Assembly (NCBI GenBank): GCA_021788015.1
Contig: JAJYLD010000001.1
Coordinates: 273,581-337,580, forward strand
Length of the DNA: 64,000 nt
Source of the DNA: a bacterium
GTDB taxonomy: Bacteria; Patescibacteriota; Patescibacteriia; Patescibacteriales; JAKAJF01
Direction of reading: 5' to 3'
The position numbers and the translations under genes are program-made. A model generated the notes under the pieces. The model was given only the letters and a program-made list of their open reading frames with translations, had not been told where the DNA came from and made no database searches. Positions 423 through 26,554 of this stretch are shown here, in pieces. The stretch's first letter is position 1. Each line of letters starts with the position of its first letter.

Positions 423-471
423 TTCTAATGTTAGAGAAAAATTTGTTAAAAATTTTGATTTATTTTTGCAC

Positions 472-500
472 TTGACACAATTTAAAAATAACTATATAAT
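472..500 (+). promoter_or_regulatory. sigma70-type promoter upstream of infA
   Basis: TTGACA (472-477), 17-nt spacer, TATAAT (495-500). Confidence 0.6.
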
Positions 501-551: not shown

Positions 552-578
552 ATGCCAAAATTTTTGTTGTTTAATTAA
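552..578 (+). promoter_or_regulatory. 8-codon uORF (MPKFLLFN) whose stop overlaps the infA start (TAATG)
   Basis: The reading frame is ATG CCA AAA TTT TTG TTG TTT AAT TAA. The last A of TAA (578) is the A of the infA ATG (578-580). Confidence 0.35.
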
Positions 579-814
579 TGTCAAAAGATCAGAAAGAAAT
601 TAACTCGAAAGACTTTATTGAAATACAAGGCGAAGTTCTCGAGTTAATGCCAGCCGCCACTTTTAAGGTCCGCCTGATAAACGGTCATGAAATTTTGGCG
701 CATTTGTCCGGAAAGATGAGAATGAACAAGATCAGATTATTGCCGGGCGACAGGGTAAGGGTGGAGATGAGCCCTTATGACTTAACAAAGGGCAGGATAA
801 CTTACAGACTGTAA
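578..814 (+). CDS. infA: translation initiation factor IF-1
   Basis: 78 aa with an S1-like fold sequence ([56 protein letters not shown]). Confidence 0.95.
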
Positions 815-825
815 TTTAATTTATG

Positions 826-946
826 AATCCCGTCTAGAAGCCGCGATCGCTTCAATGGGAATGAGATTGAGATCGCAAATTTAAAAAATTATGCAGGTCG
901 ATGCGAATCAAAAAAAATTTGATCGCGATCTGCTTCTAATGGGATG
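826..946. repeat. start-codon-docked palindromic element, copy 1 (121 nt, candidate non-autonomous mobile element)
   Basis: Arms are CCCGTCTAGAAGC-CGCGATC ... GATCGCG-ATCT-GCTTCTAATGGG. It is preceded by TATG (822-825) and ends with the ATG of rpmJ (944-946). Confidence 0.85.
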
Positions 947-1057
947 AAAGTAAGAGCTTCGGTAAAAAAACTTTGTAAAGATTGCAAAACGATTCGACGC
1001 AAAGGTCGAGTTCATGTTATTTGTAAAAATCCAAAACATAAACAAAGACAAGGGTAA
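944..1057 (+). CDS. rpmJ: 50S ribosomal protein L36 (below the ORF-track size cutoff)
   Basis: Translates to [37 protein letters not shown]. It sits in the classic position between infA and rpsM. Confidence 0.9.
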
Positions 1058-1062
1058 AAATA

Positions 1063-1292
1063 AAATTCTAAGCACTAATCTCTAAATCCTAAATTCACCC
1101 CGGCACCTTCAAGATTTTATTCCCGAATAAGTTATTTCCAAACCTTGAGTTTTAAAAAACCAAAATTTTGTTTTTAATACGAAAAGGCGCGGGGCAAGAA
1201 TCCAAAATTATAAATCCGAATGGCGAAACGTTTTGAATTTTAGTTTTTGTCATTGAGATGTTTAGAATTTAGAAGTTAGGATTTAGGATTTT
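1063..1292. repeat. long AT-rich hairpin element with TCTAAAT-type word arms (family 4, copy a)
   Basis: Left arm aaattctaagcactaatctctaaatcctaaattc pairs with right arm tttagaatttagaagttaggatttaggatttt. Related copies are at 2385, 40161 and 62943. Confidence 0.7.
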
Positions 1293-1300
1293 AAAAATAT

Positions 1301-1693
1301 ATGGCAGTAAGAATCGCGGGAGTGACAATTCCAAATGAAAAAAGGGTCGAGATCGCTTTGACTTATATTTTTGGAATTGGCATGGCAAAATCAAGCCAAG
1401 TTTTAAAACAAGCCAAAGTCAATCCAGACACTCGCGTTAAAGATTTAACCGAAGAAGAATCGAACAGGCTTAGAGAACTTATCGAAAAACATAACATGGT
1501 TGAGGGTGATCTGAAAAGAGAAATTTTAAGCAATGTAAAACGTTTGAAAGAAATCGGTTCTTATCGGGGCTCGAGACATGCGAAGGGTTTGCCGGTCAGA
1601 GGCCAAAGGACAAAGACCAATAATAGAACAGTGCGCGGAAACGTCAGAAAGACGGCCACGTCGGGAAAGAAACCGCCGGCGCAAAAAACATAA
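1301..1693 (+). CDS. rpsM: 30S ribosomal protein S13
   Basis: [27 protein letters not shown]... with a basic C-terminus; operon context supports the call. Confidence 0.95.
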
Positions 1694-1696
1694 AAA

Positions 1697-1831
1697 ACAC
1701 GAAAGAAACGGATAGGCACGCGAATAAAAACGAAAGATAGTGCGAACTTCGATTTCTGGACAGTGTTTTTAATAAATTTAAAGCTAGTTTTTAATTCGTT
1801 AAGTTTCGTGATCATATTCGTTTAATTCGTG
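1697..1831. repeat. ACGAA-word hairpin element (family 5, copy a)
   Basis: Ends cacgaaagaaacgg / cgtttaattcgtg are inverted. The 3' block ttttaattcgttaagtttcgtgatcatattcgtttaatt recurs at 9786-9824. Confidence 0.7.
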
Positions 1832-1841
1832 TTTAATTATT

Positions 1842-2378
1842 ATGACTGAAGAAAAAAATATTGAAAGAGAAACCAATGAAGTAATAAAAGCGGAAGAACC
1901 CGCCAAATTTGTTGATTCTGAAGCGGAAAGTACTCCAGAAGAATTGCCGGAAGAAGTAAAGAAGAAACTAGAAAAAGCGAAGACGGAAAAAACTCCGGTC
2001 AAAGGCAAGAGGAAGAAAAGGGGAGAGAAGAAAGTTTCAAGTGGCAAGGCATACATTAAAGCGACTTATAATAATACCATTGTTTCTTTGGCGGATATGA
2101 ACGGAAATACGGTTTCTTGGGCGAGCGCAGGGATGGCCGGCTTCAAGGGCGCGAAGAAATCAACTCCTTACGCCGCTTCGATCGTTACGAGAATCGCCGT
2201 TGAAAAAGCGAAAGAATACGGGCTTAAAGAAGTTATGGTTTTTGTTAAAGGAGTCGGAACCGGCCGAGAATCGGCAGTTCGCGCTTTAAACGCAAACGGC
2301 TTGATAGTCACGCAAATTAAGGATGTTACCTCGATGCCTCATAATGGTTGTCGTCCGAAAAAACCGAGAAGAGTATAA
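1842..2378 (+). CDS. rpsK: 30S ribosomal protein S11 with ~55-aa acidic/lysine-rich N-terminal extension
   Basis: The core is [45 protein letters not shown]. The N-terminal part is E/K-rich low complexity. Confidence 0.9.
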
Positions 2379-2384
2379 TTAAAA

Positions 2385-2482
2385 AAATTAGAAGCATAAA
2401 ATTCTAAATCCCAAACAATTCTAAAATTCAAATGGACAAAATAAAAATATTTTTAATTTAGATATTAGAATTTAGGAATTTT
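2385..2482. repeat. AT-rich word-arm hairpin (family 4, copy b)
   Basis: aaattagaagcataaaattctaaatcc ... ttagatattagaatttaggaatttt fills the rpsK-rpsD spacer. Confidence 0.65.
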
Positions 2483-2490
2483 AAATATTT

Positions 2491-3120
2491 ATGGCAAAAA
2501 ATTTGATACCACAATGCAAACAGTGCCGAAGAGCGGGACAAAAGTTATTTCTCAAAGGCGAGCGCTGTTACTCGCAAAAATGTGAAATAGTAAAAAGAAA
2601 TTATCCGCCCGGAATCCATGGCGTAAAAGGTAAAAAGAGACAAAGCGAATACGGCATGCAATTGCAGGAAAAGCAAAACGCGAAAAAGGAATACGGCCTT
2701 TTGGAAAAACAGTTCCGTTTAACTTTTGAAAAAGCGAAAAGGGAACAGGGTCAGGCCGGTGAAAATCTGCTTAAGTTGCTTGAAACGAGATTGGACAATG
2801 CCATTTACCGTTTGGGGATCGCCGCCAATCGCAATCAGGCCAGACAGATTATCGGCCACGGCCACATCGTGGTCAATGACAAAAAAGTAAACATTCCTTC
2901 ATTTCAACTTAAGTCGGGTGATGTTATAAAAATAAAACCGGCCAGCAAAAAATCGAAATTGTTTTCGGATTTGGAGACAAAACTTAAAAAAACGCAAATC
3001 CCGGGCTGGTTGAATTTTGACGTTAAGGAATCTACGGCTAAAATTTTGCACCGACCGAATATGGACGACATTAAAACCAATATCAATGTTCAGATGATCG
3101 TTGAATATTATTCAAAGTAA
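2491..3120 (+). CDS. rpsD: 30S ribosomal protein S4
   Basis: N-terminal CKQCRR...C..KC zinc-ribbon-like segment and an S4 domain (RLDNAIYRLGIAANRNQARQIIGHGHIVVN). Confidence 0.95.
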   Translation: MAKNLIPQCKQCRRAGQKLFLKGERCYSQKCEIVKRNYPPGIHGVKGKKRQSEYGMQLQEKQNAKKEYGLLEKQFRLTFEKAKREQGQAGENLLKLLETRLDNAIYRLGIAANRNQARQIIGHGHIVVNDKKVNIPSFQLKSGDVIKIKPASKKSKLFSDLETKLKKTQIPGWLNFDVKESTAKILHRPNMDDIKTNINVQMIVEYYSK

Positions 3121-3221
3121 AATAAAAATGAGCCCGCTGTCGTCTGCCTGTCCGGTAGGCGGGGCGTGGACAAGGAGTCCCATCAGATATTTTTTGTTCT
3201 TGCATCATATCTTTTTAAACG

Positions 3222-3278
3222 GAATCCGCATTTAGATAATTCTAGGCATATTTAACACGGAATATCTAATCGGGATTC
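3222..3278. repeat. imperfect hairpin in rpsD-rpoA spacer
   Basis: GAATCCGCATTTAGATA (3222-3238) pairs with TATCTAATCGGGATTC (3263-3278). Confidence 0.55.
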
Positions 3279-3292
3279 ATAATATTTAAAAT

Positions 3293-4111
3293 ATGCAAAC
3301 AATCGCTTTACCTAAGAAAATCGAATTTAAAAAAGGCGAGGAGCCGAATCGCGGTTCAATCATTATAGAGCCTTGCTATCCCGGTTACGGGACCACTTTG
3401 GGTAATTCATTGCGACGCGTTTTGATTTCGTCTTTGCCGGGAGCGGCCGTAGTCGGGGTAAAAATAAAAGGAGCCGACCACGAATTTACAGCCATCCCGC
3501 ATATCAAAGAAGATGTCTTGGAAATTATTTTAAATTTAAAGCAACTGCGCTTAAAGGTTTATAGTGAAGAGATCGTGAAATTAAACTTGGAAGTTCATGG
3601 CGAAAAAGAAGTGAAAGCGAGTGATATCGAAAAAAACAGCGAAGTTGAAATTATCAATAAAAATTTGGTTATCGCTCACATAACCGATATGGCCGGCAGT
3701 TTAAGCATGGAAGTTTACGTCTCGCAGGGCCGAGGCTACGAAACCATAGAGGCAAGAGAGACAAAAAAGCACGAAATCGGCTATATCGAGATGGATTCAA
3801 TTTTTTCTCCGGTATTTTCCGTCGGAGTTAATATTGAAAATGTTCGCGTCGGAAAAATGACCAACTGGGATAAATTAATCTTGGATATAACCACGGACGG
3901 CACTATCGCCCCGAAAGAAGCGTTTAATCAGGCCGTTGAAATTTTAATCAACCAATTCACCTCTTTAAAAACTATTGAGGAGGGCGAAGCGATTGAAGAA
4001 AAAAAAGAAGAAGTTGAAGAACCGGTTGAAGAAACGAAGGCGAAAGAGGAAGAAAAAGAAGAGATCGGAGTCGGGGAAAAGAAAAAAAGAGGCCGACCGA
4101 AAAAGGTTTAA
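3293..4111 (+). CDS. rpoA: RNA polymerase alpha subunit, N-terminal domain plus acidic linker and KRGRPKK tail (no recognisable alpha-CTD)
   Basis: The alpha-NTD sequence is present (GTTLGNSLRRVLISSLPGAAV..). The protein is only 272 aa and the last ~45 aa are E/K-rich, ending GEKKKRGRPKKV. Confidence 0.85.
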   Translation: MQTIALPKKIEFKKGEEPNRGSIIIEPCYPGYGTTLGNSLRRVLISSLPGAAVVGVKIKGADHEFTAIPHIKEDVLEIILNLKQLRLKVYSEEIVKLNLEVHGEKEVKASDIEKNSEVEIINKNLVIAHITDMAGSLSMEVYVSQGRGYETIEARETKKHEIGYIEMDSIFSPVFSVGVNIENVRVGKMTNWDKLILDITTDGTIAPKEAFNQAVEILINQFTSLKTIEEGEAIEEKKEEVEEPVEETKAKEEEKEEIGVGEKKKRGRPKKV

Positions 4112-4116
4112 ATCTG

Positions 4117-4226
4117 GTCATGCTGGAGGGAACCACGAGTCTTCGGGACGACCGATAGCATTTCGCACCACGAGATCCTATCCCCCGGATCAAGCCCGGG
4201 GCTAAAGGCAATCGCTCCAGGATGAC
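4117..4226. repeat. GTCAT-TIR hairpin element (family 2, copy A, MITE-like)
   Basis: Ends are GTCATGCTGGAG ... CTCCAGGATGAC. The nested hairpin GATAGCATTTCG/CGAGATCCTATC is shared with the copies at 4939 and 34948. Confidence 0.85.
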
Positions 4227-4234
4227 ATAACTAT

Positions 4235-4585
4235 ATGCGACACAGAGTAAAAGGAAAAATTTTAGACAGAAAAAAAGAACCGAGAGAAATGATGTTAAAA
4301 AATTTGGCATCAAGCGTTTTGATATACGAAAAAGTAAAGACGACCGAAGCGAAAGCGAAAGCGGTAAGAACTTTGGTTGAACGGGCGATTACGACTTCAA
4401 AGAAAGGCGATCTGAACGCGCGTAGAAAATTAATCGCAACTTTGCCGCAAAAAATGGCCGTAAAAAAAGCCATGGAAGTTTTGGGCAAGCGCTATGAAGA
4501 AAGAAATGGCGGCTACACGCGAATGGTTAAGTTGGGCGTAAGACCGGGAGACGGCGCCGAGATTGTTCAAATTGAATTAGTATAA
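4235..4585 (+). CDS. rplQ: 50S ribosomal protein L17
   Basis: MRHRVKGKILDRKKEPREMMLKNLASSVLIYEKVKTTEAKAKAVR...; operon position supports the call. Confidence 0.9.
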   Translation: MRHRVKGKILDRKKEPREMMLKNLASSVLIYEKVKTTEAKAKAVRTLVERAITTSKKGDLNARRKLIATLPQKMAVKKAMEVLGKRYEERNGGYTRMVKLGVRPGDGAEIVQIELV

Positions 4586-4595
4586 ATTATTTTGT

Positions 4596-4934
4596 ATGAC
4601 AAGAAAATTACATAAAATCGACGCGACAAACAAATCAGTGGGTCGATTGGCGACACAAATCGCCGTTCTTTTGCGCGGAAAAGACAAGCCGGAATTCGAA
4701 CCGCATAAAGACGATGGCGACATTGTCGAAGTTGCAAATATTAAAGATGTAAAATTTACGGGGAAAAAAATTGAGCAGAAAAAATATTTTAGCTATTCCG
4801 GCTATCCGGGCGGGTTGAAAGAAAAAAAGATAAAAAGTTTAAAACCGGAAGAAATTTTATTCCGAGCCGTCCGCGAAATGCTTCCCGATAACAGGTTGCG
4901 AAATGGAATGCTCAAGAGATTAATCATTAAATAG
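4596..4934 (+). CDS. rplM: 50S ribosomal protein L13 (short form, 112 aa)
   Basis: KIDATNKSVGRLATQIAVLLRGKDKPEFEPH..GD.V.V.N; followed by rpsI as in most bacteria. Confidence 0.85.
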   Translation: MTRKLHKIDATNKSVGRLATQIAVLLRGKDKPEFEPHKDDGDIVEVANIKDVKFTGKKIEQKKYFSYSGYPGGLKEKKIKSLKPEEILFRAVREMLPDNRLRNGMLKRLIIK

Positions 4935-4938
4935 AAGT

Positions 4939-5020
4939 GTCATACCGGAGGGAGTTCTGGACTCGGGACGACCTATAGCATCTCGCACCACGAGATCCTA
5001 TCGCTTCGCTCCAGGATGAC
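4939..5020. repeat. GTCAT-TIR hairpin element (family 2, copy B)
   Basis: GTCATACCGGAG ... CTCCAGGATGAC, 82 nt, same orientation as copy A. Confidence 0.85.
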
Positions 5021-5027
5021 TATTTAT

Positions 5028-5483
5028 ATGCCAACAGCAAAAAAGACAACTGAAGAGAAATTAAAAAAACCGGAGATCAAAGAAGAAGTAAAATTCAAAG
5101 GTAAATATACTGAAGCGGTCGGAAAAAGAAAAACCGCATCCGCCACGGTCAGACTGTATAAAAACGGAAACGGCAATATAATCGTGAACGGAATGAAAAT
5201 TAACCAATATTTTACGAATGAATTGGCGGCGGTCGCAACTCAGCCGATTAAATTGATCGGCGCCAAAGAGGCTAATTTTTCGGTTGTGGTTCGAGGCGGC
5301 GGAAAGAGCGGCCAGGCCGACGCGGTAAAGTTGGGCATCTCTCGAGTTTTGATAAAATCGGATAAAGATTTGAAAACGACTTTAAAAGCAAAAGATTTTT
5401 TAACTCGGGACTCAAGAAAGAAGGAAAGAAAGAAACCGGGCTTGAAACGAGCGAGAAGGGCCCCGCAATGGAGCAAACGTTAA
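5028..5483 (+). CDS. rpsI: 30S ribosomal protein S9 with ~25-aa K/E-rich N-terminal extension
   Basis: Core is GKRKTASATVRLY...GGGKSGQADAVKLGISRVL...RRAPQWSKR. The ORF-track start at 5016 lies inside the repeat, so ATG 5028 is preferred. Confidence 0.9.
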   Translation: MPTAKKTTEEKLKKPEIKEEVKFKGKYTEAVGKRKTASATVRLYKNGNGNIIVNGMKINQYFTNELAAVATQPIKLIGAKEANFSVVVRGGGKSGQADAVKLGISRVLIKSDKDLKTTLKAKDFLTRDSRKKERKKPGLKRARRAPQWSKR

Positions 5484-20115: not shown

Positions 20116-21405
20116 ATGGCAATACAATATATGCTGGATATAAAATTCATACGAGAAAATCCGGAGTTGGTAAAGAAAAACGCCAAAAACAGATTGGTCG
20201 ATGTTGATATTGATAAGCTTTTGGATTTGGATCAAAAACGGCGAGAGGTAAGTATAAAGATTGATGAATTGAGGGCGAAACGAAATTCCGTTTCGCAAGT
20301 TAAGCCGACTCCGGAAATAATCGAAGAAATGAAAAAAACCGGGGAAGAAATTAAAAAATTGGAGCGGGAAATTATTCCGATCGAAGCCGCATTCCGCGAA
20401 CTTTGGCTTGCCGTTCCCAATTTAACGCATCCCGACGTTGTGGTCAGTCAAAACGAAGATGATAACCCGGTGCTGGACACATTCGGTAAACCGACGAAAT
20501 TCGATTTCGAACCACTTGATCACGTCCAACTTGCGGAAAAAAACGACTTAATCGATTTTGACCGGGCGACAAAAGTGACCGGCGCGAAATTTTATTATTT
20601 AAAAAATGAACTGGCGTTGATGGAATTCGCGCTTGTCCAATACGCTTTGAGCGTCGTCATGAAGCACGGCTTCATTCCGTTTGTCACTCCCGATCTGGCG
20701 AAAAGAGAAGTTTTGGACGGCCTAGGCTTTAATCCGAGAGGGGAGTCAACCAATATTTACAATGTGGAAAATGCCGATTTAAGCCTGATAGGCACGGCCG
20801 AAATAACCATGGGCGGATACCACATGAACGAAATTTTGGATGAAAGCGAATTGCCAAAAAAATATGTTGCCGTATCGCATTGTTTCAGGACAGAAGCGGG
20901 ATCTTATTCGAAGTTTTCCAAAGGCACATTCCGCGTCCATCAATTTACAAAGGTGGAAATGTTTCAATATACTTTGCCGGAAGAATCGGAAAAAGCGCAC
21001 TTCGGAATGCTTGAAATTGAAAAAGAAATTTTTAAAGGATTAAAAATTCCGTTCCGCGTCATCGATCATTCTACGGCCGATTTGGGTTCGCCGTCTTACC
21101 GAACATACGATCTCGAGGCGTGGATGCCGGGCAAGCCGAATAAAGAGGGCGCGCAAGGCGACTGGGCGGAAATCACGTCGACTTCCAATACGACCGATTT
21201 TCAGGCGCGCGGCTTGAATATCAAATACAAAACCAAAGACGGAAAAAAGAAATATGTCCACATGTTAAACGGAACGGCCATAGCAAATAGCCGCGGCATA
21301 ATAGCGATTCTGGAAAACTATCAACAAAAAGACGGTTCGATTGTTATTCCGAAAGTTTTGCAAAATTACCTGGGAGGAAAAAAATTAATTAAAAATTTTA
21401 AATAA
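20116..21405 (+). CDS. serS: seryl-tRNA synthetase
   Basis: N-terminal coiled-coil arm and class II motifs (FRTEAGS..., GDWAEITSTSN..DFQARG). Confidence 0.95.
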   Translation: MAIQYMLDIKFIRENPELVKKNAKNRLVDVDIDKLLDLDQKRREVSIKIDELRAKRNSVSQVKPTPEIIEEMKKTGEEIKKLEREIIPIEAAFRELWLAVPNLTHPDVVVSQNEDDNPVLDTFGKPTKFDFEPLDHVQLAEKNDLIDFDRATKVTGAKFYYLKNELALMEFALVQYALSVVMKHGFIPFVTPDLAKREVLDGLGFNPRGESTNIYNVENADLSLIGTAEITMGGYHMNEILDESELPKKYVAVSHCFRTEAGSYSKFSKGTFRVHQFTKVEMFQYTLPEESEKAHFGMLEIEKEIFKGLKIPFRVIDHSTADLGSPSYRTYDLEAWMPGKPNKEGAQGDWAEITSTSNTTDFQARGLNIKYKTKDGKKKYVHMLNGTAIANSRGIIAILENYQQKDGSIVIPKVLQNYLGGKKLIKNFK

Positions 21406-25306: not shown

Positions 25307-26444
25307 AGATTTACAATTGTCCGTTATCAAACAAATCGAACTTAGGGCTTCGAGATATCCGGATGTCGTTTCTTTGGCGCAAGGAATCCCGAGTTTTGAC
25401 ACCCCGGAGAGCATAAAAAGACGGGTGGAAAACGCCTTAAAAAGGGGAGTGGTGGCAAAATACTCTTTAAGCCCGGGATTGCCGGAACTTAGAGAATTGA
25501 TTGAAATTTCTCTGGCTCGGGAAAACATGTTTTATGATTGGCAAAAAGAAATTATAGTTACCGCCGGTTCGATTGAGGCCATAACTGCCGCGATTTTGGC
25601 CGTTACCGATCCGGGCGACGAGGTCATAATTCCGGAACCCACTTATACGAGCTATCGCGAAGTTATTATTTTGGCAGGATGCAAACCGGTTTTTGTTCCC
25701 CTTGATGAAAATAACGGCTGGTCATTCGATTTGGACAAGTTTAAAAAAGCGATTACTCCGAAAACAAAAGCGATTTTTTATTGCAACCCTAATAATCCGA
25801 CTGGAACGATTTATTCGAAAGAGAACCTTTTGGGTTTGGCTAAAATCGCGGAAGAAAGCGATTTATATCTGATTTCCGACGAAGTTTATAAAGATTTTAT
25901 TTTTAACGGCGAAAAATTCTTCAGTTTGGCCGAAATTCCGAAATCGCGCAAACGAGTGATAAGAATTTTTTCTTTTTCAAAAGCTTTCGCCATGACGGGC
26001 TGGCGCATTGGTTATTTGCACGGCGACGAATCCGTTGTAAAAGAAATTTTAAAAGTTCACGATTGTCTCGTCACTTGCGCTCCGGTCGTATCTCAATACG
26101 GAGCCATGGGCGCTTTGGAAATGGGTGAAAAAGACGTAAAATTTTTTGTGGGTGAATTTAAAAAAAGAAGAAATTTGATCTGTGAACGGCTTGACAGTTT
26201 AAAAAATATTTTCAGCTATGTAAAACCGAACAGCGCCTACTACGTTTTTCCGAAAATTTTAAGGGAAAACGTTAAGTCTTGGGATTTTTCTTTGGCGCTC
26301 TTGGAAAAAGCGCGAGTGGCCGTTGTCCCCGGTATCGCTTTCGGACCGAACGGAGAAGGCCATATTCGCATGAGTTTCGGCAGAAGCGAGGACGACATAA
26401 ACAAAGCCTTCGATCGCATGGAAAAAATGTATGAACCCCGTTAG
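25290..26444 (+). CDS. class I/II PLP-dependent aminotransferase
   Basis: NPNNPTG and the PLP-lysine region SFSKAFAMTGWRIGY. The last two codons and the stop lie inside the repeat element. Confidence 0.85.
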   Translation: MANRTKDLQLSVIKQIELRASRYPDVVSLAQGIPSFDTPESIKRRVENALKRGVVAKYSLSPGLPELRELIEISLARENMFYDWQKEIIVTAGSIEAITAAILAVTDPGDEVIIPEPTYTSYREVIILAGCKPVFVPLDENNGWSFDLDKFKKAITPKTKAIFYCNPNNPTGTIYSKENLLGLAKIAEESDLYLISDEVYKDFIFNGEKFFSLAEIPKSRKRVIRIFSFSKAFAMTGWRIGYLHGDESVVKEILKVHDCLVTCAPVVSQYGAMGALEMGEKDVKFFVGEFKKRRNLICERLDSLKNIFSYVKPNSAYYVFPKILRENVKSWDFSLALLEKARVAVVPGIAFGPNGEGHIRMSFGRSEDDINKAFDRMEKMYEPR

Positions 26445-26554
26445 AAGCCGCGATCGCTTTAGCAAATAAAAAATACAAATAGGATTAAGATTTTAGTAAT
26501 TTTTAATATTTAATATGCGGATCGAAATGATCGCGACCTGCTTCTAACGGGATG
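26434..26554. repeat. start-codon-docked palindromic element, copy 2 (121 nt)
   Basis: CCCGTTAGAAGCCGCGATCGC ... GATCGCGACCTGCTTCTAACGGG. It is preceded by TATG (26430-26433) and ends with ATG 26552-26554. Confidence 0.85.

Follow-up and report, generated by a model that had tools for sequence, protein, structure and literature searches.

The rpoA gene and its operon

The DNA stretch analysed here, a window of 64,000 nucleotides, contains a ribosomal-protein operon at 578-5483 in which the genes are ordered infA-rpmJ-rpsM-rpsK-rpsD-rpoA-rplQ-rplM-rpsI. The rpoA gene and the features associated with it are listed in Table 1. The rpoA stop codon is followed by a spacer of 123 nt and then by rplQ. 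This spacer is occupied by a GC-rich repeat whose 40-nt core is 95% identical to 4963-5002 and which is predicted to adopt a multi-branch fold of -47.7 kcal/mol (z = -3.7). At the Rfam gathering threshold, a search of the whole window returned two tRNAs only and no match for the element after rpoA. Because the repeat-filled spacer and then rplQ adjoin the rpoA stop codon, there is no room for a C-terminal domain (CTD) downstream of the reading frame, in agreement with the original prediction, which had pointed out this lack of space.

Table 1. Features at the rpoA locus, with positions given in the numbering of the window
Feature	Residues	Position	Strand	Basis or remark
Candidate operon promoter and A/T tracts		430..500	+	Promoter scan, 12/12
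rpoA coding sequence	272 aa + stop	3293..4111	+	ATG start, TAA stop
Alpha N-terminal domain	1-226	3293..3970	+	PF01193, PF01000, PDB RpoA chains, AlphaFold pLDDT
Acidic, probably disordered linker, TIEEGEAIEEKKEEVEEPVEETKAKEEEKEEIGVGE	227-262	3971..4078	+	pLDDT, homologue alignment
Putative C-terminal basic AT-hook, KKKRGRPKKV	263-272	4079..4108	+	Conservation in homologues
GC-rich structured repeat ('family-2 element') in the rpoA-rplQ spacer		4117..4226 (about)	+	Context, not part of the protein
rplQ (L17)		4235..4585	+	PF01196; directly downstream of rpoA

The spacers of this operon are unusually long (80-170 nt), and several of them contain repeats. A second copy of the family-2 repeat lies at 4940-5010 in the rplM-rpsI spacer. 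An element of ~125 nt is present in three copies (815-946, 26420-26554 and 38474-38609), in which a variable, AT-rich middle is flanked by GC-rich arms, CCCGTTAGAAGCCGCGATCG ... GATCGCGATCTGCTTCTAACGGG, that are complementary to each other. Every copy terminates precisely at a gene's ATG, that of rpmJ (944) or of the ORFs that begin at 26552 and 38607, and the stretch immediately before the start codon would be buried by the long stem that is predicted for the element. No Rfam match was obtained for this element. AT-rich repeats of the TTTAGAAATTAGAA type are paired at 1057-1093/1256-1292, 2379-2415/2452-2488 and 40154-40190/40256-40292, in the spacers that follow rpmJ, rpsK and the gene ending at 40160. 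Judged by eye, these pairs (families D1 and D2) resemble inverted copies. The rpsK gene (S11, 1842-2378) encodes a protein of 178 aa whose N-terminus is extended by an acidic and Lys-rich segment of about 50-60 aa; here, too, a core information-processing protein bears a charged, low-complexity appendage.

RpoA has an alpha N-terminal domain and no alpha-CTD

The N-terminal domain (NTD) of the alpha subunit mediates dimerisation and is the platform on which beta and beta' are assembled. Pfam matched RpoA with PF01000 at aa 56-172 (7e-30) and with PF01193 at aa 26-222 (1e-20), which we take to be the insert domain and the Rpb3/Rpb11-type dimerisation domain, respectively. RpoA also passed the NCBIfam models NF003519 (279.4 bits, cut-off 277) and TIGR02027 (260.2 bits, cut-off 227.8), with the alignment restricted to model positions ~1-252 of 298-320. 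Alignments with the RpoA chains in the PDB were confined to aa ~1-250, the best of them (E = 5e-56) covering aa 12-252. In an AlphaFold2 model built from a 55-sequence alignment, pLDDT was above 90 at aa ~10-225.

The alpha-CTD profile of Pfam, PF03118 (RNA_pol_A_CTD), gave no match in RpoA, even at E <= 10. A custom alpha-CTD HMM was built from 79 divergent CTDs, candidate-phyla-type CTDs included. RpoA scored -0.7 bits with this profile, and the positive control, the nearest CTD-bearing relative (L080), was detected at 4e-23. No alpha-CTD was found with the same 79-sequence profile when the 64-kb window was searched in six frames, and a two-sequence CTD profile tried earlier had given an identical outcome. 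Only 46 residues remain after the NTD, and the PF03118 domain has a length of ~70-80 aa. By its NTD and its position in the operon, the protein is a bona fide RpoA that lacks the CTD feature. The absence of an alpha-CTD claimed by the original prediction was thus borne out by Pfam and by the custom HMM, no CTD being detected in the tail, and AlphaFold2 returned a confident NTD followed by a tail of low confidence.

The tail consists of an acidic linker and a putative AT-hook

The C-terminus of RpoA reads LKTIEEGEAIEEKKEEVEEPVEETKAKEEEKEEIGVGEKKKRGRPKKV up to the stop codon or, quoted more fully, TIEEGEAIEEKKEEVEEPVEETKAKEEEKEEIGVGEKKKRGRPKKV. The ORF translation is an exact match to the tail sequence given in the original prediction, and the tail is organised as described there, with an acidic linker and a canonical AT-hook core at the end. 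The linker comprises 36 aa with a net charge of -12, and the last ten residues (KKKRGRPKKV) carry a net charge of +7. The RGRP core corresponds to aa 266-269 (nt 4088-4099). In the AlphaFold2 model, the mean pLDDT per 10-residue block was 53, 41 and 36 over aa 231-260; block means were 36-55 from aa ~231 to the end, and pLDDT was below 50 at aa 241-263. This suggests that RpoA is probably composed of a folded NTD and a disordered tail.

An AT-hook is expected to have an R-G-R-P core with Lys or Arg on both sides and to lie in a disordered region. The first feature is present in RpoA (KKK-RGRP-KK, aa 263-271), and the low pLDDT, together with a linker that could not be aligned among homologues, is consistent with the second. 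The Pfam AT_hook profile (PF02178) aligned with aa 263-271 at 10.1 bits (E = 0.85), under its cut-off of 17.4 bits, the single short copy in RpoA falling below the curated threshold. RpoA therefore appears to carry an AT-hook by motif and disordered context, not by Pfam score. A sequence search of the PDB with the 22-aa tail as query produced zero matches because this query is too short and of low complexity.

The hook motif is conserved and under purifying selection

The best 120 RpoA homologues (64-100% identity, 243-318 aa) are all short, and PF03118 was detected in 0/120. The few named ones among them are Falkowbacteria or 'Patescibacteria group'. Exactly one RGRP is present in 104 of the best 120, always 3-7 residues from the C-terminus, and the consensus of these 104 proteins is K-K-R-G-R-P-K-K. 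The linker that precedes the motif varies from 22 to 64 aa (mean 40) and is ~35% Asp/Glu. In an alignment extending down to 45-48% NTD identity, R266, G267, R268 and P269 were invariant and K271 was conserved, and it is in this alignment that the linker was unalignable.

The codons of the hook vary in 28 species genomes (AGA, AGG or CGN for Arg, GGN for Gly and CCN for Pro), and the encoded peptide is constant. Synonymous codon variation with a constant peptide shows that selection acts on the protein rather than on a DNA or RNA element, the hook motif being under purifying selection at the protein level. The chance occurrence of RGRP was assessed in 301,538 aa of six-frame fragments of 60 aa or longer from the window and 80 related loci. 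The motif was found 33 times; 29 of these hits were RpoA tails and the remaining four were short spurious fragments. RGRP is thus essentially exclusive to RpoA in the window and these 80 loci. Since KKRGRPKK is strongly conserved beside an unalignable linker and its codons vary synonymously, the hook very likely has a function.

Relatives without an alpha-CTD have tails of several types

A scan of one genome per species yielded >599 related rpoA genes, and the tails were surveyed in the best 80, which include records named Falkowbacteria, Kerfeldbacteria, Komeilibacteria, Uhrbacteria, Parcubacteria and 'Patescibacteria group'. Falkowbacteria are placed within the Parcubacteria group in the NCBI taxonomy. 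A CTD was present in only one of the best 80 (L080) and absent in the other 79. A hook was found in 28, a Lys-rich tail of the type KKEKKxKKKTKK in ~32 and an acidic or other tail in ~11, and in eight the protein ended just after the NTD (232-239 aa). The survey of rpoA length and tails thus agrees with the original prediction of a short RpoA. Representatives of 50%-identity clusters showed identical tail classes, and among these representatives many more distant relatives, with an RpoA of 300-345 aa, have kept a divergent CTD.

In a neighbour-joining tree of the NTD alone, which is poorly resolved, hook-type and Lys-type clades were interleaved within one CTD-less clade. This rough, single-domain tree was used for the interleaving alone and not for the ancestral state. 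Seven of the eight tail-less proteins (232-235 aa) form one clade, and both records named Uhrbacteria lie inside it. The G+C content was 52% for the tail-less loci vs 39% (p = 9e-5), a difference that is not independent evidence because the tail-less forms are one clade. The seven Uhrbacteria-like loci (L063, L065, L070, L072, L076, L078 and L079), in which RpoA has neither linker nor basic tail, each match at 2501-~3200 and have a mean G+C of 52%. Four other loci (L001, L004, L006 and L010) and ~30 more are titled 'uncultured Gammaproteobacteria bacterium isolate binchicken_...'. These records are clearly Patescibacteria by rpoA and operon content, and their title looks like a placeholder or a wrong taxonomic label.

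These data bear on the reading in which an artefact or gene decay accounts for the short RpoA, through a truncated assembly, a frameshift or a separate CTD encoded nearby, so that its tail would be meaningless. The tail is indeed low in complexity and rich in E and K, and one unrelated 760-bp contig has an rpoA CTD behind an in-frame TAA, showing that metagenome data do contain rpoA calls that are split or interrupted. However, the identical protein is present on four independently assembled contigs (ENA, Logan and NCBI), the longest of 361,715 bp; the CTD is missing from the whole set of best homologues as well as from 79 of the 80 species genomes; and the CTD profile returned no hit in the window or in the +/-2.5 kb that flank the 79 CTD-less loci, whichever frame was read. 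Purifying selection on the hook motif also argues against decay. Assembly artefact, frameshift and readthrough into a CTD were rejected on account of the four identical contigs and the lack of a CTD in any frame, and the artefact reading, to which we assign a negligible probability, is effectively refuted. The original prediction had named an assembly artefact as its own possible undoing, and the short form proved to be a property of the whole clade.

The CTD of L080 was also used as the query in a word-indexed database search for stand-alone CTD proteins, which gave one candidate, P0274. This is a 67-aa CTD ORF on the 760-bp contig mentioned above (L083, ENA ERZ28563803), in which the rpoA NTD and CTD, together at 1-630, are in frame and separated by a single TAA. 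The in-frame TAA could be a sequencing error, a pseudogene or a case of stop-codon readthrough. P0274 belongs to a different lineage and is uninformative about the genome of the window.

The predicted operon promoter has upstream A/T tracts

The sequence TTGACA-17-TATAAT is located at 472-500, 78 nt before infA, and is the sole 12/12 promoter match in the window. Phased A/T tracts of the A5T3-4 type (AAAAATTT, AAAAATTTT and TTTATTTTT) lie upstream of it at about -70 to -40, spaced ~11 bp apart, and might be bound by the hook. Elsewhere in the window, some 20 intergenic promoter candidates had no striking or consistent pattern of upstream A/T tracts. Among the sequence-predicted promoters of the window, the operon promoter is the one clear case of an UP-like A/T-tract element. 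Similar A/T blocks (repeat family D3) are found at 21373-21405, 36381-36413 and 38521-38553. The original prediction had placed the hook in an AT-rich genome; the window is AT-rich, but only moderately, with a G+C content of about 40%.

Discussion

The alpha-CTD reads UP elements, recognising the minor groove of A/T tracts, and serves as the docking site for many activators. The best explanation of our results, which we favour with modest confidence as a whole, is that the short protein is a genuine, functional alpha subunit of a bacterium of the Parcubacteria group (Falkowbacteria-like). Its tail, tethered to RNAP, would replace the alpha-CTD as a minor-groove anchor on AT-rich DNA upstream of promoters, and we hold this to be somewhat more probable than its negation. 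The folded alpha-CTD has been lost in this lineage, and a disordered module, a tether of ~40 acidic residues and a single AT-hook (KKRGRPKK), would stand in its place. RNAP has two alpha subunits, therefore it would carry two hooks. The R-G-R core of each would enter the narrow minor groove of A/T tracts, adding binding energy and making promoter complexes more stable; the hook would thereby target the groove and the kind of sequence that the alpha-CTD reads in UP elements. The acidic linker would hold the tail extended and off the DNA, and it is probably an intramolecular competitor of the hook that only favourable AT-rich sites would overcome. This role for the tether is proposed by extension from what is known of HMGA, HMGB and the Bacillus delta subunit. 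DNA binding, its specificity for AT-rich and upstream DNA, and the role of the linker are what we infer from the tail. Without an alpha-CTD surface, activation of the classical alpha-CTD-dependent kind is not possible.

Several observations are consistent with a minor-groove anchor. The motif matches the AT-hook consensus, predicted confidence is split between NTD and tail, and the motif is kept down to 45-48% NTD identity. AT-hooks tethered to RNAP at promoters have precedents in WhiB7 and CarD, by analogy. The predicted promoter of the operon combines a perfect -35/-10 with phased A/T tracts, and the tail-less relatives come from GC-richer loci, although these represent one clade. On the other side, a lone AT-hook peptide has only weak affinity for DNA (PMC11354804), an acidic linker adjoining the hook would oppose DNA binding, the AT_hook score is below the Pfam threshold, and the other promoter candidates of the window are without striking A/T tracts. 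The relatives also qualify the proposal. Because they include Lys-rich, acidic-only and NTD-only forms of RpoA, the hook is not indispensable and AT-specific reading is perhaps not the selected property. Since the tails of close relatives are variously Lys-rich, acidic-only or missing, the trait common to them may be a flexible, largely electrostatic anchoring to DNA and not strict UP reading. The suggestion in the original prediction that a minimal AT-hook takes over UP-element recognition is therefore qualified by the tails of relatives, by the ~40% G+C and by the single clear UP-like promoter in the window.

The main rival is anchoring to DNA or the nucleoid without sequence specificity, in which the basic end of the tail would raise the general DNA affinity of RNAP with no UP-like reading. 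It might help RNAP to search for promoters or, in a tiny cell, to stay on the nucleoid; the AT-hook would be one of several interchangeable basic peptides. The alternation of hook, Lys-rich and mixed tails among close relatives in one CTD-less clade would fit this reading, as would the lack of a clear A/T-tract array at most promoter candidates of the window. [quoted passage not shown] However, the invariance, which extends to 45% NTD identity and is accompanied by synonymous turnover of codons, is that of RGRP and not of mere charge, and pure electrostatics would need neither the G nor the P. The AT-hook core is, moreover, structurally specific for the narrow AT minor groove (PMC11354804). 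We consider non-specific anchoring as a whole to be rather unlikely.

Binding of a partner other than DNA is less likely still, and we regard it as improbable. The tail might bind nascent or ribosomal RNA, for example in RNAP-ribosome coupling, or an acidic protein, or the hook might fold back on the linker and so act as a regulatory switch. Both RNA binding and protein contacts are known for AT-hooks and for extended AT-hooks (PMC11354804); the linker, moreover, has a strongly acidic character, and rpoA is situated within a ribosomal-protein operon. Against these points, the motif is the canonical short DNA-type hook and not the extended, RNA-preferring type, and the known RNAP-associated bacterial AT-hooks, those of WhiB7 and CarD, all bind promoter-upstream DNA. 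In the established RNAP structure, the alpha C-terminus faces upstream DNA. A minor-groove anchor on upstream DNA therefore remains the reading that we prefer. A broader scenario can be put forward tentatively, as something that we doubt more than we believe. A large Parcubacteria/Patescibacteria branch may have rebuilt upstream-promoter recognition on the core enzyme from a disordered, HMGA-like module consisting of a self-inhibiting acidic tether and one AT-hook per alpha. This module might provide UP-like stimulation without alpha-CTD-dependent activator control, and the hook, Lys-rich and tail-less variants might represent global promoter strength retuned, lineage by lineage, with genome A+T.

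To our knowledge, the alpha-CTD is regarded as near-universal in bacterial RNA polymerase. Its loss was said in passing, in one sentence, to be 'also present in Parcubacteria' (PMC8321222). The paper cited there for this loss, PMC4508563, makes no such statement in the available portions of its main text and supplements. Apart from that single sentence, no discussion of alpha-CTD loss in Patescibacteria was found in the full-text literature searched. Nor was an AT-hook on RpoA described in this literature, whose coverage leaves out most subscription journals. Loss of the alpha-CTD in Parcubacteria has thus been mentioned once before, and its replacement by an AT-hook, as proposed here, is new as far as we found.

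Together, these results show that a large, environmentally widespread radiation lives without an alpha-CTD and has a conserved 8-residue motif of the minor-groove type on a probably disordered tether instead. The hook tail is a candidate for a natural minimal UP reader and would be easy to assay. Activation in these organisms cannot use class-I contacts of the alpha-CTD type, which fits their small regulatory repertoires. Hook-type RpoA would add a core-enzyme case to the few known bacterial AT-hooks (WhiB7 and CarD). For annotation, PF03118 is not to be expected as a marker in these lineages.

Comparison with known systems

In E. coli, the alpha-CTD comprises RpoA residues ~249-329, and its canonical interaction with UP elements is reportedly the subject of work by Ross et al. 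in 1993 and Gourse et al. in 2000. Like this domain, the hook is a module at the alpha C-terminus on a flexible linker, in two copies per RNAP, and its expected target is likewise the minor groove of A/T tracts upstream of -35, such as those at the operon promoter. In contrast, hook-type RpoA has no folded helix-hairpin-helix and hence no surface for activators or sigma region 4. Its linker is 2-3 times longer and strongly acidic, and recognition would be achieved by about 8 residues.

WhiB7 of Mycobacterium tuberculosis (PDB 7KIF), an activator, also has a single C-terminal AT-hook tethered to the RNAP holoenzyme. Bound to sigma-A, WhiB7 inserts this hook into the minor groove at an AT-rich motif that immediately precedes -35 (PMC10243135, PMC8786299). 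WhiB7 is, however, a separate, inducible Fe-S protein on sigma region 4, whereas the putative RpoA hook is in a core subunit, is constitutive and has a long acidic tether. The motif is the sole likeness in sequence, and Pfam found no WhiB Fe-S cluster domain in RpoA.

CarD of Myxococcus xanthus is an RNAP-associated protein whose unfolded C-terminal part consists of an acidic segment followed by RGRP AT-hooks, and it binds an AT-rich site upstream of a promoter (PMC4374960). In other species and in experiments, the hook region of CarD is interchangeable with basic disordered domains like histone H1 (PMC4374960). The RpoA tail has the same order, acidic linker and then hook, on a module that binds RNAP, and the alternation of hook and Lys-rich tails in relatives mirrors the replaceability of the CarD domain. 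CarD differs in having four hooks and a Tudor-like domain that binds RNAP beta, in needing CarG and in acting at ECF-sigma promoters; RpoA has one putative hook on alpha itself and, by Pfam, no CarD_CdnL_TRCF domain. The presence in RpoA of the HMGA-like order of CarD is best regarded as analogy, not membership.

The founding AT-hook consensus, that of HMGA, is TPKRPRGRPKK, and a single AT-hook peptide alone binds DNA weakly (PMC11354804). The core and flanks of the RpoA motif are alike (TPKRPRGRPKK vs KKKRGRPKK), and intrinsic disorder and an acidic stretch are shared (PMC11354804). HMGA, by contrast, is a free architectural factor with three hooks and an acidic tail at its C-terminus. Because the motif is only 8 residues long, common ancestry of the RpoA hook and HMGA is unlikely.

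Alpha subunits from which the alpha-CTD has been lost are known from the extreme endosymbionts Hodgkinia and Tremblaya and from Euglena plastids (PMC8321222). As in the RpoA described here, the alpha-CTD is gone and the alpha-NTD is kept. Those cases were described as erosion without replacement, whereas in this RpoA a motif of the DNA-binding type, conserved throughout a large and diverse radiation, occupies the place of the CTD. Collectively, these comparisons suggest that hook-type RpoA would resemble the alpha-CTD/UP system, WhiB7 and CarD in its proposed action and belongs to none of those families.
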